Below are positions 4,500-18,277 of a DNA stretch of 44,413 nucleotides, in pieces. This DNA is from a virus (taxonomy: Duplodnaviria; Heunggongvirae; Uroviricota; Caudoviricetes): IMG/VR virus record IMGVR_UViG_2657245588_000005; one strand, given 5' to 3'. A program made the translations under genes and the position numbers. The notes beneath the pieces are model-generated. The model was not told where the DNA came from, ran no database searches, and was given only the letters and a program-made list of their open reading frames with translations. Position 1 is the first letter of the stretch; every line of letters begins with the position of its first letter.

Positions 4500-4557
4500 A
4501 AAAAGGGCGGCAGAGCAGTCACGGAGTAAAACTGATACCGCCAAACGTCACCAGAAA
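4500..4557 (-). ncRNA. dicF: DicF small RNA (about 53 nt plus U-tail; ftsZ-targeting sRNA of the dicB operon)
   Basis: Minus-strand sequence UUUCUGGUGACGUUUGGCGGUAUCAGUUUUACUCCGUGACUGCUCUGCCGCCC followed by UUUUU (GC stem plus U-run terminator); matches recalled DicF and lies where dicF sits in Qin, between ydfC and dicB. Confidence 0.65.
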
Positions 4558-10350: not shown

Positions 10351-10609
10351 ATACAGCGAACGCCATTGGTTTAGTTGGATATTTACTGTGCCGGACAAAA
10401 ACGGTTTGCGGGGAAATCTTAGTTAAGTAGAATGACTGCGGGTGCTTGAGGCTATCTGTCTCAGGCATGAACACCAAAAGGCAGATAGAGAAAAGCCCCA
10501 GTTAACATTACGCGTCCTGCAAGACGCTTAACATTAATCTGAGGCTCAATCTATGAACGGCAAATCTAGGTTAGCCTCTTACGTGCCGAAAGGCAAGGAG
10601 AAGCAGGCT

Positions 10610-10765
10610 ATGAAGCAGCAAAAGGCGATGTTAATCGCCCTGATCGTCATCTGTTTAACCGTCATTGTGACGGCACTGGTAACGAGGAAAGACCTCTGCG
10701 AGGTACGAATCCGAACCGGCCAGACGGAGGTCGCTGTCTTCACAGCTTACGAACCTGAGGAGTAA
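10610..10765 (+). CDS. hokD: Hok/Gef-family type I membrane toxin (HokD/RelF-like)
   Basis: 51 aa 'MKQQKAMLIALIVICLTVIVTALVTRKDLCEVRIRTGQTEVAVFTAYEPEE'; AAGGAG RBS; in-frame upstream extension from 10553; intrinsic terminator downstream. Confidence 0.8.
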   Translation: MKQQKAMLIALIVICLTVIVTALVTRKDLCEVRIRTGQTEVAVFTAYEPEE

Positions 10766-12017: not shown

Positions 12018-13553
12018 ATGAGCAGCTCACTTCCTGACGATATCAATGCACTGAAACGTCTCCTTGCCGAACAGGAGGCGCTGAACCGTGCCCTGCAGGA
12101 AAAGCTGAACGAGCGTGAACGCGAAATAGACCATCTGCAGGCACAGCTGGATAAGCTGCGCCGGATGAACTTCGGCAGCCGCTCGGAAAAAGTCTCCCGT
12201 CGTATCGCACAGATGGAAGCTGACCTGAAGGCACTTCAGAAAGAAAGTGATACCCTTACCGGTCGGGTTGACGACCCGGCCGTGCAGCGCCCGCTGCGTC
12301 AAACCCGCACCCGCAAACCGTTCCCCGAATCACTCCCCCGCGATGAAAAACGGCTGCTGCCGGCAGCGTCATGCTGCCCGGAATGTGGAGGCTCGCTGAG
12401 CTATCTGGGTGAGGATGCCGCTGAACAGCTGGAGCTGATGCGCAGCGCCTTCCGGGTTATCCGGACTGTACGTGAAAAGCATGCCTGTACTCAGTGCGAT
12501 GCCATCGTGCAGGCCCCCGCGCCTTCACGGCCCATCGAGCGGGGTATCGCAGGACCGGGGCTGCTGGCCCGCGTGCTGATCTCAAAGTATGCAGAGCACA
12601 CCCCGCTGTACCGCCAGTCTGAAATGTACGGCCGCCAGGGCGTGGAGCTGAGTCGTTCACTGCTGTCGGGCTGGGTGGATGCATGCTGCCGGCTACTGTC
12701 ACCGCTGGAAGAAGCGCTTCAGGACTATGTGCTGACTGACGGTAAGCTCCATGCTGATGACACGCCTGTCCCGGTGCTGTTGCCAGGCAATAAGAAAACG
12801 AAGACCGGGCGGTTATGGACCTACGTTCGTGACGACCGTAACGCCGGGTCAACGCTGGCGCCGGCGGTGTGGTTCGCTTACAGCCCGGACAGAAAAGGCA
12901 TCCATCCGCAGACCCATCTTGCGGGGTTCAGTGGTGTACTGCAGGCGGATGCATACGCCGGGTTCAACGAGCTGTACCGGGATGGCCGGATAACGGAAGC
13001 CGCCTGTTGGGCTCACGCCCGCCGTAAAATCCACGATGTGCACGTTCGCACCCCGTCAGCCCTGACGGAGGAAGCGCTGAAACGGATCGGCGAACTGTAC
13101 GCCATCGAGGCAGAGATAAGGGGAATGACGGCGGAGCAGCGCCTTGCCGAACGTCAGTTGAAAACGAAACCGCTGCTGAAATCCCTGGAAAGCTGGCTGC
13201 GTGAAAAGATGAAAACCCTGTCGCGACACTCAGAACTGGCGAAAGCGTTCGCATACGCCCTGAACCAGTGGCCGGCGCTGACGTACTATGCAGATGATGG
13301 CTGGGCTGAGGCGGACAATAACATCGCTGAAAATGCGTTGCGGATGGTCAGTCTGGGCCGCAAAAACTACCTGTTCTTCGGTTCGGATCATGGAGGAGAG
13401 CGGGGAGCGCTGCTGTACAGCCTGATCGGGACGTGCAAACTGAACGGAGTGGAGCCAGAAAGCTACCTCCGCTATGTCCTTGACGTCATAGCCGACTGGC
13501 CGATAAACCGGGTCGGCGAACTGCTCCCCCTGGCGCGTAGCACTGCCGACTGA
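12018..13553 (+). CDS. IS66-family transposase (TnpC, DDE)
   Basis: 511 aa with N-terminal coiled coil, CxxC zinc-finger region and DDE core, typical of IS66 TnpC. Confidence 0.88.
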
Positions 13554-14734: not shown

Positions 14735-15115
14735 ATGACTGAACGCATAGAATTTGTTTTGCCTTACCCGCCGACGGTGAATACCTACTGGCGACGTCAT
14801 GGCAATACGTATTTCATCTCGGAGGCCGGAAAGCGTTATCGCCGTGATGTGGCGCTAATTGTTCGCCAGCAGCGGCTGAAATTAAACCTGTCCGGAAGGC
14901 TGGCGATAAAGGTGATTGCAGAGCCACCGGATAAGCGTCGTCGCGACCTGGACAATATCCTGAAAGCACCGCTGGATGCGCTGACGCATGCGGGAGTGTT
15001 AATGGACGATGAGCAGTTTGATGAAATCAATATCGTTCGTGGTCAGCCAGTATCTGGTGGACGTCTGGGGGTGAAGATTTACCCCATAATGCATGAAGAG
15101 CAGGTCAAAAAATGA
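14735..15115 (+). CDS. rusA: Holliday junction resolvase RusA
   Basis: 126 aa with the RusA 'RRRDLDN' signature; start coupled to the upstream stop and stop overlapping the Q start. Confidence 0.85.
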   Translation: MTERIEFVLPYPPTVNTYWRRHGNTYFISEAGKRYRRDVALIVRQQRLKLNLSGRLAIKVIAEPPDKRRRDLDNILKAPLDALTHAGVLMDDEQFDEINIVRGQPVSGGRLGVKIYPIMHEEQVKK

Positions 15116-15933
15116 AACTGGAAGATTTACCGAAATACTACTCCCCAAAATCCCCTGGCCTGACCGATGCATCGGCCTCAACGTCAAAAGATGCGCTGAG
15201 TATCACTGATGTGATGGCCGCGCAGGGCATGACACAGAATCGGGCTGAGATGGGGTTTTCTGCGTTCCTGGGGAAAATGGGCATCAGTATGAATGACAGG
15301 GCGCGGGCAACAGAATTACTGGCAGATTATGCACTCAGTCGGTGCGATCGTGTTGCGGCGTTGAGAAAACTTCCGGCAGAAATAAAACCGTTAGTGATGC
15401 GCATTATGGCTTCGTACGCTTTTGAGGATTATGCCCGCAGCGCAGCGAGTAAAAAGCAGTGCCCTTGTTGCTATGGGGAAAAATTTATTGAAAGCGTAGT
15501 TTTTACAAACAAGGTCCAGTATCCGGATGGTAAGCCGCCGGTATGGGCAAAGTGTACGAAAGGTGTGTATTCGTCTTACTGGGAAGAATGGAAAAAAGTC
15601 AGGGAGGTGGTAAAAGTTGCCTGTCCGGAGTGTGGCGGAAAGGGTGAGGTTTCCACCGCCTGTAAGGATTGCCGTGGGCGTGGTGTCGCCATTCATCGTG
15701 AAGAGTCGGTAAAACGTGGTATGCCTGTTATCAGAGACTGCCAGCGTTGTGGTGGTCGTGGCTATGAAAGACTACCATCAACGGAGACATTTAATGCTAT
15801 ATGCGAGGTGACAAACCAGATAACACGCGCGTCATGGGAAAAAACAGTTAAGAAATTCTATGATGCGCTGGTGACCCGGTTTGATATTGAAGAAGCATGG
15901 GCTGAGCGGCAGTTAAAAAAGGTAACTAGGTAA
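15112..15933 (+). CDS. Late-gene antitermination protein Q (phage 21/82-type, zinc-finger)
   Basis: 273 aa with several CxxC pairs; immediately followed by a PR'-like promoter, a terminator and a tRNA. Confidence 0.8.
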   Translation: MKLEDLPKYYSPKSPGLTDASASTSKDALSITDVMAAQGMTQNRAEMGFSAFLGKMGISMNDRARATELLADYALSRCDRVAALRKLPAEIKPLVMRIMASYAFEDYARSAASKKQCPCCYGEKFIESVVFTNKVQYPDGKPPVWAKCTKGVYSSYWEEWKKVREVVKVACPECGGKGEVSTACKDCRGRGVAIHREESVKRGMPVIRDCQRCGGRGYERLPSTETFNAICEVTNQITRASWEKTVKKFYDALVTRFDIEEAWAERQLKKVTR

Positions 15934-15938
15934 CAAGG

Positions 15939-15966
15939 TTGATTTTTCCGGAATCTGTGGTAAATT
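15939..15966 (+). promoter_or_regulatory. Candidate late promoter PR' (-35 TTGATT, 16-bp spacer, -10 TAAATT)
   Basis: Hexamers at 15939-15944 and 15961-15966 directly after the Q stop; the -10 is identical to the recalled lambda PR' -10 (TAAATT). Confidence 0.45.
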
Positions 15967-16013
15967 CGTCATAATAATGGGCTTTTTATGCCTGACGTTA
16001 GAAGAGTTTCTAC

Positions 16014-16038
16014 AACCCGCCGCCGAGCGGGTTTTTTA
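16014..16038 (+). terminator. Intrinsic terminator downstream of the PR' candidate (tR'-like)
   Basis: CCCGC-CGCCGA-GCGGG hairpin followed by TTTTTT. Confidence 0.6.
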
Positions 16039-16076
16039 TTGCGGAATTAATTACGGACCGTTATTATTCTACTCCC

Positions 16077-16152
16077 GGCCCTTTAGCTCAGTGGTGAGAG
16101 CGAGCGACTCATAATCGCCAGGTCGCTGGTTCAAATCCAGCAAGGGCCACCA
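16077..16152 (+). tRNA. tRNA with CAT anticodon (Met or lysidine-modified Ile2; phage ileZ-like), with encoded CCA
   Basis: 76 nt folds by hand into a cloverleaf: 7-bp acceptor stem GGCCCTT/AAGGGCC, D-stem GCTC/GAGC, anticodon loop CTCATAA, T-arm GCTGG-TTCAAAT-CCAGC, 3' ACCA. Confidence 0.85.
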
Positions 16153-16252
16153 TCACAAACCGCCATTAGCTTATCAGGAAGAGCAGACGACACGATAACA
16201 GGGTTGTTGGTGCGGGGGCGGGTCCCCGATGGCGGTCCATTATCGGTATTCA

Positions 16253-16300
16253 GCGTTGTTAGCTCAGCCGGGCAGAGCAATTGCCTTCTAAGCAGCTGTG
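16253..16300 (+). pseudogene. tRNA-Arg(UCU)-like remnant (5' half only; T-arm and 3' acceptor strand degenerate)
   Basis: GCGTTGT-TA-GCTC...GAGC D-arm and anticodon arm with loop CTTCTAA resemble phage argN/argO tRNAs, but no complementary 3' acceptor strand or T-stem follows. Confidence 0.3.
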
Positions 16301-16494
16301 GTTGCACTCCTGTTGTTTCTGGTGGTGATGGTGGACTTCAGCAGCCGGATAATGTCGGTGCTGTCTGATGGTGTTTTGGTGGCGGGTGTGTGGTTGTTGC
16401 TTTCCCGTTGCTGAAAAAGAAAGCATCAGGCGATTAGCAGGGTATCAGTTACCCGTTGAAATTTTTAAATACCTCACAATTCCACAGCTTGATG

Positions 16495-16694
16495 ATTGTC
16501 TGGCTGCCGGAGAATTTGTTAAAAATTACATCGCATGGTGAATCCCCCTCAGCGGCGGGGCATCTGGCAAAGTGTATGATCCAGAGAACATGCAAATTCA
16601 GTAGACAGGCTGAATTTACCGGGAGGCCCCTGGCACCATGCGACAGACAGAAATTAGGCTATACTTCAGCCCCTCTCCGGAGGGGCTTTTCTGT
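16495..16694 (+). repeat. Structured element copy 1 (shared 5' and 3' arms, ends in an intrinsic terminator); candidate sRNA or late-leader module
   Basis: Shares with copy 2 the 5' block 'attgtctggc.gccgg...tttgttaaaaa..tcgcatggtgaatccccc' and the 3' block 'gaattcaccgggaggc.cc.ggcaccatgc...cagcccctctccggaggggct' followed by T-run; 5' GGTGAAT is complementary to 3' ATTCACC. Confidence 0.6.
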
Positions 16695-16961
16695 GCAGGA
16701 TGTGTCACAGTTTCCTGAATTCTGAGTACTGTCCTGTTACTCAGGGTGCTATATTTTCTGACGTGATGAAAGTCTGCCGGAAGGCGGAACGTATCGGAAA
16801 TGACCCAGTAGAGAAAACGTTGACTCAGATACCGATGCTGAGTTACCGGGAAACCGGCATCACATGACCGCTATCCTTCCAGGCTCGCTCCGGCGGGCCT
16901 TTTTACTGCAGAAAACAGTTTTCCCGTAAAATGCCACGTTGCTCATAATTCAGGCTGGCGA

Positions 16962-17160
16962 TTATTGTCTGGCCGGCGGGAAGTTTGTTAAAAAATTTCG
17001 CATGGTGAATCCCCCTGTGCGGAGGGGTAATCAGCGAGTAGGTATATGGGATAATCGCGGATTCAGGTGCTGGTACTGAATTCACCGGGAGGCACCCGGC
17101 ACCATGCAATGGCACATAGCGCCACTCTCCAGCCCCTCTCCGGAGGGGCTGTTTATATTG
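16962..17160 (+). repeat. Structured element copy 2 (diverged middle, same ends and terminator)
   Basis: Same conserved 5' and 3' blocks and the same terminator hairpin CCCCTCTCCGGAGGGG as copy 1. Confidence 0.6.
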
Positions 17161-17185
17161 ATTTTGTCAGATGTGAGTAAACTCC

Positions 17186-17521
17186 TTATGGACTTTGTTG
17201 TTTTAGTCCATAAGGACATATTTGCAGAATGCAACGGTTATTAAAGCATTCATTCAATACGTTATCTGTATTTGTAGGGCATTCCTGGCTGTTTTTGATT
17301 AAATTCCAGAATGTTTTATTGAATGGTACTACGTTGTAAATGGTTACAGGTAGCACTTTGTTATTGAGCATGATACCTGTGTGAGTCAGTGTAAATATAC
17401 TTTCAGGAGGTAAGAAAGCATCCGATTGATACCAGATTATTAATTTTACTTTACTCCATATGACTGAAAAAGATATTCCGCATGATGGCTGGATAACTGT
17501 ATCAATTACAATCCACTTCAT
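17186..17521 (-). CDS. Hypothetical protein (111 aa) in AT-rich DNA, antisense to the late operon (moron at the stx-equivalent site)
   Basis: ATG at 17519-17521 with AAGGAAG RBS 6 nt upstream; strongly AT-rich ORF and flank (17186-17760) compared with the surrounding phage DNA; no recognisable motif. Confidence 0.5.
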
Positions 17522-17781
17522 TTAGCTTCCTTGTTTATGCCTTGCTGGTGATGTTCTGAAAAGTATAAATGATATTTTTGAATATAAACCATAGAGCAGA
17601 ATTATTTTTCTGATGTTGTTTATTGTTTATTTAAATGCAGGGTGGTTTATATCTCGTCTTGTAGTTTATCCATGCATATCTGCTTGATGATCAGGTTTCT
17701 ATTTAAGGTATGGTTTTGTGTTTTTTCTGTGTTACATGTCTGGTATTTTAAAGAATTATTTTTCAGATGGTGGAAAGAACC

Positions 17782-17970
17782 ATGGCATTTAAACACTATG
17801 ATGTTGTCAGGGCGGCGCCGCCGTCAGATCTTGCGGAAAAGCTGACACATAAACTGAAAGAGGGCTGGCAGCCGTTTGGTAGTCCGGTGGCCATAACCCC
17901 TTATACCCTGATGCAGGCGATTGCAGCAGAAGGTGATGTGGTGGTCAGTGGTGCAACTGAGCCGGAGTGA
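17782..17970 (+). CDS. Small conserved phage protein upstream of the lysis cassette (possibly DUF1737-like)
   Basis: 62 aa from ATG 17782 with GGTGGAAAG RBS; 'MAFKHYDVVRAAPPSDLAEKLTHKLKEGWQPFGSPV...'. Confidence 0.45.
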   Translation: MAFKHYDVVRAAPPSDLAEKLTHKLKEGWQPFGSPVAITPYTLMQAIAAEGDVVVSGATEPE

Positions 17971-18277
17971 TACTACGTCATCGTACTGGCCCGGCATTCC
18001 AGACCATAAAAGACGGTCTGGCAGTGGGACTAAATGCACTGACGCTGACGGATATTACCAAAAATGCAACGTATGGCGTTGAGATAGAAAGTCTGGTGCT
18101 GGAGATAAATACACCGGCATCATCATAAAAAGTGAGCCAGTCAAATGGAAGGTATCGTTAAACTCACCGGTAGTGTCAGTGGATCGTCTGAGACGCTTGC
18201 ATGAGTTATCAGAGCCATCAGTAGTTAACTGGTGGCTTTTTTATTGTTGTCAGCTTCCGGATAACGGGAGACGGGGT

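Follow-up and report, generated by a model that had tools for sequence, protein, structure and literature searches.

The DNA analyzed here (the window) is a 44,413-nucleotide stretch of a lambdoid prophage, IMG/VR virus record IMGVR_UViG_2657245588_000005. Between its Q and tRNA genes and the lysis genes, an initial annotation had noticed two diverged copies of an element of about 200 bp. The question raised by this locus is whether these copies encode a structured small RNA, derive from the late promoter region PR' or represent mobile repeats of the MITE type. As that annotation had described, copies A (16495–16694) and B (16962–17160) have a common 5' block (TTGTCTGG / ATTGTCTGG...TTTGTTAAAAA...GCATGGTGAATCCCCC) and a common 3' block (CTGAATTYACCGGGAGGCNCCNGGCACCATGC), and their middles are unlike. 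The 3' block indeed pairs with the 5' block: GCATGGTG and CACCATGC form a closing helix that is present in the minimum-free-energy (MFE) fold of both A (−62.5 kcal/mol, z −3.0) and B (−69.8 kcal/mol, z −3.2). Both copies end in the same intrinsic terminator, AGCCCCTCTCCGGAGGGGCT plus a T-run, and both of these sites were called as terminators, the U-tail of B being weak (CUGUUUAUAUU).

The whole window was scanned against Rfam at gathering thresholds. Both copies were identified as RF02076 ("Gammaproteobacterial sRNA STnc100"; gathering score 47 bits), copy A at 16503–16696 with 138 bits (E 1.8e-30) and copy B at 16972–17160 with 132.5 bits (E 4.8e-29). They reach about three times the gathering score and cover the full model (positions 1–206), and A and B are clear STnc100 members. 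In addition, published qPCR primers for STnc_100 match unit B exactly at 17001–17020 and 17074–17093. The idea of a structured, terminator-ended small RNA was thus borne out, and the Rfam search that had been proposed as a check showed the element to be already catalogued.

A permissive scan revealed a further, diverged unit (M) between A and B, which the initial annotation had missed when it counted two copies. Unit M matches RF02076 over the full model at 16732–16907 with 30 bits, which is below the gathering score of 47 (E 4e-4 when 2.3 kb were searched and 4.7e-5 when 261 nt were searched). Part of unit M is also recovered by a profile HMM for which only A and B were used (E 2e-4), and iterated sequence profiles find it at about 1e-8 to 2e-8. 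The MFE fold of unit M retains the closing helix P0, the helices P1 and P4 and the terminator. Three pairs of its P0 differ on both sides from the GCAUGGUG/CACCAUGC helix of A and B with the pairing intact, and a CCGG-GAAA-CCGG hairpin stands at the place of P4. Unit M is a degenerate STnc100 relative and could be a decaying pseudogene. As this third unit lies between A and B, we conclude that the locus is a head-to-tail array of three. The linkers that separate P0 from the terminator read GACAGACAGAAAUUAGGCUAUACUUCA in A, GACCGCUAUCCUUCC in M and AAUGGCACAUAGCGCCACUCUC in B. The coordinates of all features are given in Table 1.

Table 1. Positions of the Q gene, the PR'–tR' module, the tRNA gene and the elements of units A, M and B in the window.
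Feature	Position	Strand	Evidence
Late antiterminator Q gene	15112–15933	+	Pfam PF03589 Antiterm, E 1.2e-54; RefSeq "antitermination protein"
PR'-like promoter: −35 TTGATT 15939–15944, −10 TAAATT 15961–15966	within 15939–16039	+	read from sequence
tR'-like terminator: 16014–16033 plus T-run	within 15939–16039	+	called by terminator scan
tRNA, CAT anticodon	16077–16152	+	ARAGORN; Rfam tRNA 72.5 bits; RefSeq tRNA-Ile
Unit A promoter: −35 TTGTCT 16496–16501, TG 16517–16518, −10 TAAAAA 16520–16525	16496–16525	+	read from sequence
Unit A RNA	16533–16691	+	STnc100 138 bits; terminator called
Unit A P0	16533–16540 with 16634–16641		
Unit A P1	16544–16559		
Unit A variable P2 region	16560–16593		
Unit A P3	16594–16617		
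Unit A P4	16619–16633		
Unit A linker	16642–16667		
Unit A terminator	16668–16687 plus U-run		
Unit M extended −10 (TGCTATATT)	16747–16755	+	read from sequence
Unit M RNA, diverged	16761–16905	+	STnc100 30 bits; sequence profiles; terminator called
Unit M P0 (ACGUGAUG with CAUCACAU)	16761–16768 with 16858–16865		
Unit M P1	16773–16788		
Unit M P4	16846–16857		
Unit M linker	16866–16880		
Unit M terminator	16881–16900 plus U-run		
Unit B promoter: −35 TTGTCT 16965–16970, TG 16986–16987, −10 TAAAAA 16989–16994	16965–16994	+	read from sequence
Unit B RNA	17000–17160	+	STnc100 132.5 bits; terminator called
Unit B P0	17000–17007 with 17100–17107		
Unit B P1	17012–17027		
Unit B P2	17034–17058		
Unit B P3	17059–17083		
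Unit B P4	17085–17099		
Unit B linker	17108–17129		
Unit B terminator	17130–17151 plus U-rich tail		

The array region is identical to that of many E. coli chromosomes and of phages such as vB_EcoS-640R1, and its identity to the same region of mEp460 is 99%. The Q gene (PF03589) is followed by the PR'–tR' module, the tRNA(CAU) gene, an ORF of the DUF3927 family and the units A–M–B. Past unit B come a minus-strand iraM-like ORF, DUF1737, holin, lysozyme, Rz and bor/iss; the holin, lysozyme and Rz genes downstream of the array are annotated in RefSeq. The array therefore occupies the moron site typical of STnc100, between Q/PR' and the lysis genes. The PR'-like promoter and terminator that had been reported directly after Q were confirmed, and this module is separate from the STnc100 units. 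The terminator scan found 13 terminator-like sites in the region against 2.2 expected from shuffles, and the stretch from Q to the lysis genes holds four on the plus strand (16014, 16668, 16881 and 17130). The Rfam scan of 15900–18200 at E ≤5 gave the three STnc100 units and the tRNA as the only credible matches; those to Trp_leader, snoRNA and Plastid-ycf2 are sub-threshold noise. Neither of the ~55-nt anti-sRNAs AsxR (RF02703) and AgvB (RF02702) was detected: the window scan at gathering thresholds was negative for both, and so was the scan of 15900–18200 at E ≤5. As a control, the same scan recovered AsxR in 933W with 88.1 bits.

To examine the structure across homologues, we collected 240 loci by pattern scans of species-representative genomes and viral contigs. 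Iterated nhmmer searches identified 228 units in 168 of them, in the genera Escherichia, Klebsiella, Raoultella, Enterobacter, Kosakonia, Citrobacter, Leclercia, Superficieibacter, Trabulsiella, Atlantibacter, Silvania and Erwinia. The RNA parts of 106 units less than 97% identical to each other were aligned with MAFFT, independently of the Rfam alignment, and analyzed by RNAalifold. The consensus consists of an 8-bp closing helix P0 around P1 (CCCCC/GGGG), P2 with a constant base (GCG/CGC) and a variable arm, P3, and P4 (CCGGG-AGGCA-CCCGG). When folded individually, A, M and B each adopt this architecture.

The folding and covariation check that had been suggested for the paired arms gave a clear answer, as 22 of the 27 pairs of the RNAalifold structure carry compensatory double changes among the 106 units. 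On the structure, 94.7% of the cells are paired, compared with 40–46% when the partners are slid by 1–3 columns; the corresponding values are 342 against 65–98 for double-change cells and 0.367 against 0.07–0.11 for the covariation score. None of the 500 shuffles reached any of the covariation measures. The compensatory covariation shows selection on RNA pairing, and the closing helix, the internal hairpins and the covariation are those of the STnc100 consensus structure. From Erwinia to Escherichia, approximately 15 unpaired nucleotides of the core are at least 90% conserved, among them GAAU, GCGG in the P1 loop and GGGAGGCA in the P4 loop. Meanwhile, the linker 3' of P0 is unalignable between subfamilies, and the terminator sequence is also subfamily-specific. 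The linker and the P2 arm form a mosaic: a single P2-arm class combines with as many as 8 linker classes and a single linker class with as many as 5 P2 classes, i.e., the classes recombine freely.

For the promoters, 105 units were scanned for sigma-70-like matches (at least 9 of 13) at offsets from −60 to +40 relative to P0. The matches pile up where the −10 element ends 5–8 nt before P0 (6, 22, 10 and 10% of units), and at every other offset they are found in at most 3% of units. The TGTTAAAAA motif, in which a possible extended −10 had been seen, falls at this very position. The promoters of units A and B agree with the pile-up, and the −10 of unit M ends 6 nt before the closing helix, within the same range. 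The promoter sequences differ by genus (for example, TTGACA-N17-TATTAAT versus TTGTCT-N18-TAAAAA with an upstream TG), and what is conserved across genera is the position and function of the promoter, beyond mere sequence. As judged from sequence signals, each unit therefore has its own promoter and its own intrinsic terminator, as expected for STnc100. The total number of promoter-like matches in the region is not above that in shuffles. Minus-strand promoter-like matches within the unit promoters (TTAACA-16-GACAAT) mirror the TTGTTAA motif.

Published ends of related RNAs agree with these positions. The sRNAs PasD2 (NC_011601, 741157–741328) and PasD1 (1060260–1060432) have 5' ends that were estimated from RNA-seq, and in the Rfam alignment both starts (741157 and 1060260) correspond to the first G of GCAUGGUG, i.e., the start of P0. 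Their 3' ends lie in the U-run of the terminator. RpoD ChIP-exo signal has also been reported at STnc100 promoters of Salmonella LT2. From the promoter position, the PasD1 and PasD2 ends and the ChIP-exo signal, we predict that the window RNAs should start at approximately 16533, 16761 and 17000. The view of the ~200-bp element as a structured RNA accordingly stands for its RNA part only: the first ~35 bp of each copy are promoter DNA rather than RNA. By the same reasoning, the first ~30 positions of the Rfam STnc100 model appear to be promoter DNA.

The array is not peculiar to the window. It is covered to at least 80% in 671 of 5426 complete E. coli genomes, and some unit-like match is present in 2861 of the 5426, at up to 12 places per genome. 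The loci fetched comprised 151 singletons, 10 doublets, 15 triplets and 3 quadruplets, all of the arrays head-to-tail and with a start-to-start spacing of mostly 207–271 bp. Such arrays of 2–4 units occur in several genera, including Superficieibacter and Leclercia. Some viral contigs contain a second triple of the A–M–B type, with different flanking units and a similar middle unit. In Leclercia and Atlantibacter, the relatives are located downstream of a Q gene, and in Raoultella a relative is located upstream of a holin gene.

Few sRNA families are annotated as often as STnc100, and the literature gives a validated direct target for no member of it. In EDL933, 11 STnc100 copies are transcribed, one of them confirmed by northern blot. 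EcOnc27 of the Sakai prophage Sp5, named sRNA103 in EDL933/933W, lies downstream of stx2B and was confirmed by Hfq-CRAC and northern blot; overexpression of sRNA103 raises the fimZ and espA transcripts, and the stx2-linked STnc100 copy is associated with clinical outcome. In our scan, the STnc100 copy of 933W reached 207.7 bits; it is located 75 nt downstream of stx2B and is directly followed by the convergent AsxR. The window units share with STnc100/EcOnc27/sRNA103 the core, the promoter motif TTTGTTAAAAA and the place between PR' and the lysis genes, and the linker of unit A resembles that of 933W (ACAGAAATTAGGCTATAC versus ACAGAGATTAGGCATATAC). In contrast to 933W, the window has neither stx genes nor a convergent AsxR or AgvB partner and carries three tandem units instead, and the P2 arms and linkers of its units are otherwise unlike the 933W copy. 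Tree et al. (2014) described convergent sRNA "dyads" in eight Sakai prophages, in which AsxR or AgvB faces a unit of this kind; the dyads occupy the moron site 3' of PR'. Our scan of 933W confirmed this layout there. The site of these dyads, upstream of the lysis genes, is that of the window array, and their sense member belongs to the same family as the window units; the window differs by a co-oriented triple array without an antisense anti-sRNA gene. The literature considered here emphasizes convergent dyads or dispersed copies, as opposed to the tandem arrays found here.

PasD1 and PasD2 of EPEC E2348/69 were verified by northern blot and also found by RIL-seq. Hfq-dependent stability has been reported for the Pas sRNAs collectively, although the PasD2 mRNA level was not reduced in an hfq mutant (Table S2 of that study). 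The predicted PasD seed, UGUGAG, is located just 5' of the terminator, between it and P0. A 2026 preprint derives PasD and STnc100 from a common ancestor. The sub-threshold matches of PasD1 and PasD2 to the Rfam STnc100 model (37.7 and 41.4 bits) agree with this common ancestry. The PasD genes have the same architecture as the window units and the same neighborhood, with a DUF3927 ORF, then the unit, then a holin gene. The differences are that the sequence similarity is only distant, with the core motifs alone in common, and that the PasD copies lie in separate prophages and the window units in tandem. The window units are also not near-identical to PasD, and in none of them does the linker carry UGUGAG.

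The best explanation of the locus, to which we assign a probability of roughly 0.8, is a tandem array of three STnc100-family sRNA genes, each of which is its own transcription unit with the variable linker as the probable seed. The array consists of moron-site genes of a lambdoid prophage, and the family is already known. In the mechanism that we propose, transcription from a sigma-70 promoter with an (extended) −10 would begin with the first base of the 8-bp closing helix, and the following ~110 nt would fold into a conserved multi-helix core in which P0 encloses P1 to P4. A linker of 15–26 nt, different in each unit, would come next, and the intrinsic terminator would end the RNA at roughly 145–160 nt. 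The conserved core would serve as a scaffold that stabilises the RNA or binds a partner. The linker, which varies between units and immediately precedes the terminator, may, as the PasD seed suggests, be the seed for pairing with target mRNAs, which would fit the measured mosaic exchange of linkers and P2 arms. If the linker is the seed, A, M and B would have different targets. By analogy with the published relatives, the window RNAs would be expressed in lysogens, bound by Hfq and dependent on Hfq for their stability. The three terminators would stop the units' own transcripts short of the lysis genes and would also stop PR' transcripts that are not antiterminated, and Q-modified polymerase would read through them.

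This last property could also be the main one. In that case, the units would chiefly be a terminator or insulator cassette that silences the holin and endolysin genes in the lysogen, with the RNAs as by-products. The four plus-strand terminators between Q and the lysis genes agree with such a role, as does the fact that the units always lie upstream of the lysis cassette in lambdoid prophages. However, a terminator needs neither its own promoter nor a core of ~110 nt with 22 covarying pairs and loop nucleotides that are invariant across genera. Moreover, some family members have non-phage-type genes as neighbors, in Kosakonia a KdgM porin gene and in Erwinia an alpha/beta hydrolase gene. We consider this role improbable as the main function; as a side effect it is plausible and compatible with the sRNA explanation. 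The placement of a conserved, structured domain immediately before a terminator would likewise be expected of a cis-acting leader (attenuator, riboswitch or put-like element) that gates read-through from its own promoter or from PR'. In E. coli-type units, the 3' strand of P1 (GGAGGGGC) even repeats the 3' strand of the terminator, and alternative pairings can be drawn. Between subfamilies, however, the terminators vary (CCCCTCTCCGGAGGGG, GCCTGCTTTTNCGAGCAGGC and others) and the linker cannot be aligned while P1 stays constant; therefore, no antiterminator pairing is conserved. In the arrays, the "downstream gene" of a unit is the next unit, and elsewhere the downstream genes vary by locus. 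As the relatives also build up as individual, Hfq-bound transcripts of about 170 nt, we regard a leader function as very unlikely. It is still harder to credit that the units encode small proteins, with GGGAGG of P4 as the Shine-Dalgarno sequence for the ATG of CACCATGC 11 nt downstream. A and B do contain GGAGG-N11-ATG, and several STnc100 copies of EDL933 have ribosome footprints, with ribosomal coverage values of up to 3.2. Nevertheless, most genera lack the ATG and have CACCACAC, CACCACGC and other sequences instead, which covary with the 5' strand of P0. In A and B, the reading frames cross the terminator without an in-frame stop inside the RNA and give unrelated peptides, and Pfam gives no match for a 55-aa ORF lying over unit M. 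We rejected the ORFs that overlap the units as genes, since they are not conserved, have no Pfam match and contain an ATG that covaries as part of P0. Over the units, RefSeq has only "hypothetical protein" entries, and these are spurious.

Two further origins had been considered in the initial annotation. In phage lambda, the constitutive promoter PR', the short 6S RNA and the strong terminator tR' lie downstream of Q, and the promoter, the ~160-nt RNA and the strong terminator of the window units past Q resemble this layout. The copies might accordingly be short PR' transcripts of the lambda 6S or StxS type, or else recombination scars of PR'–tR' modules from two phages. Lambda 6S and StxS are likewise short terminator-ended RNAs made from a constitutive promoter downstream of Q. 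They start at PR' itself, whereas the window units have their own promoters, unlike the PR' of the window, 0.5–1 kb past PR'–tR' and beyond the tRNA gene, and a transcript of this type was therefore rejected. In Atlantibacter (L006), a similar PR'–tR' module also lies directly after Q and is followed by an STnc100 unit 190 nt later, and in 933W the unit stands after stx2B, far from PR'. As a separate PR'–tR' module directly follows Q in two genera, with the STnc100 units further downstream, we do not regard the units as PR'-derived, and neither of the two versions seems credible to us. The weakest candidate is a MITE-like mobile repeat without RNA function. It would account for the multiplicity of units within genomes, with as many as 12 places in a single E. 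coli genome, and for the varied contexts of the units. Against it, the units are co-oriented with the late operon wherever the context was examined, the arrays are always head-to-tail, and the compensatory changes reflect selection on RNA pairing. Of the four inverted repeats found in 15800–18000 none brackets a unit, and no target-site duplications flank the units. A mobile repeat is thus most improbable.

The array of STnc100-family sRNA genes is real but ordinary as a finding, since the repeats are copies of a catalogued family of prophage small-RNA genes, together with a third, degenerate copy. It adds little to a family that is frequently annotated and whose relatives have been confirmed by northern blot, Hfq-CRAC and RIL-seq. 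What it does add is modest: a third unit, tandem arrays that recur elsewhere, a 5' end placed at P0 and the mosaicism of scaffold and linker. Described in this structure-aware way, as a scaffold with a variable linker and mosaic exchange, the family offers a concrete basis for the design of experiments.

The ~15 conserved unpaired nucleotides exceed what a passive 5' stabiliser would need, and for this reason function may reside in the core and not in the linker. Tentatively, and with a rather low likelihood in our judgment, the core with its five covarying helices may be a module dedicated to binding a host or phage protein, or the ribosome via the invariant GGAGG. If so, STnc100 and PasD would be regulators with a fixed scaffold plus an exchangeable seed, and tandem arrays such as this one would be multiplex cassettes that deliver several seeds or decoy copies from one moron site.

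Between the two reported copies of the STnc100 (Rfam RF02076) sRNA gene, A and B, lies a third, diverged STnc100-like unit, M, which has its own extended -10 and its own terminator. The 55-aa ORF overlapping this middle unit had no Pfam match.

The first 29 positions of RF02076 appear to be promoter DNA (-35 and -10) and not RNA, a reading based on the 5' ends of PasD1 and PasD2, distant STnc100 relatives of EPEC, and on the promoter pile-up. Neither copy in the window pairs canonically in the outermost helix of the Rfam model (positions 14-16). In units of the E. coli type, the internal helix P1 has a 3' strand (CGGNGGGG) nearly identical to that of the terminator (CGGAGGGGC), so that, judging from the sequence, the P1 and terminator strands could cross-pair. 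The subfamilies with other terminators lack this repeat.

Features of the window and head-to-tail STnc100-like arrays in homologous loci
Feature	Position	Strand	Remark
DicF sRNA	4505-4556	-	76.7 bits
sok antisense RNA	10440-10615	+	112 bits; adjoins hokD
511-aa ORF	12018-13553		inserted upstream of DUF968-RusA-Q genes
PR'-like promoter and tR'-like terminator	15939-16039		directly after Q
tRNA-Arg(UCU)-like half gene	~16258-16295
DUF3927 ORF	16298-16414		3' of the tRNA-like half gene
RF02076 positions 1-29	16503-16532; 16972-16999
P1 3' strand vs terminator 3' strand	16552-16560 vs 16679-16687; 17019-17027 vs 17142-17150
55-aa ORF	16700-16867		overlaps unit M
Unit M	16732-16907
Perfect 12-bp inverted repeat	17183-17216
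111-aa ORF, AT-rich	17186-17521	-	RefSeq: anti-adapter protein IraM
67-aa DUF1737 ORF	17767-17970		upstream of holin gene
Array, L053	6322-7007
Array, L077	2788-3216
Array, L126	2264-3386
Array, L087
Array, L049

Upstream of the array, the PR'-like/tR'-like module would, from its sequence, yield a short StxS-like transcript; as in the window, a recognisably similar module stands downstream of a Q gene in Atlantibacter (L006 4580-4668). The stretch that resembles a tRNA-Arg(UCU)-like gene in its 5' half only (GTTAGCTCAGCCGGGCAGAGCAATTGCCTTCTAAGCAG) drew no ARAGORN call; it is probably what is left of a tRNA cluster of the ileZ-argN-argO type, such as Stx-like phages have. On the other side of the array, the IraM-annotated ORF, which had no Pfam match, is a convergent moron at the site that AsxR/AgvB or nanS-p occupies in Stx phages, and the inverted repeat follows the stop codon of this ORF. 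The homologous feature of the DUF1737 ORF is marked as incomplete in RefSeq. The sok and DicF RNAs are found in the same prophage, away from the array, and the 511-aa ORF is one that we take to resemble an IS66-family transposase.

Head-to-tail arrays of two to four STnc100-like units were found in Superficieibacter, in other Enterobacteriaceae and in viral contigs, whereas the E. coli literature consulted here describes dyads or dispersed copies. Family members of Kosakonia (L041), Erwinia (L076) and Trabulsiella (L057) adjoin genes that do not look phage-derived. Among these neighbours, Pfam identifies genes for a KdgM porin and for an alpha/beta hydrolase, and a further ORF is one that we take for an autotransporter; given such neighbours, the STnc100 family is not restricted to the late regions of intact prophages.
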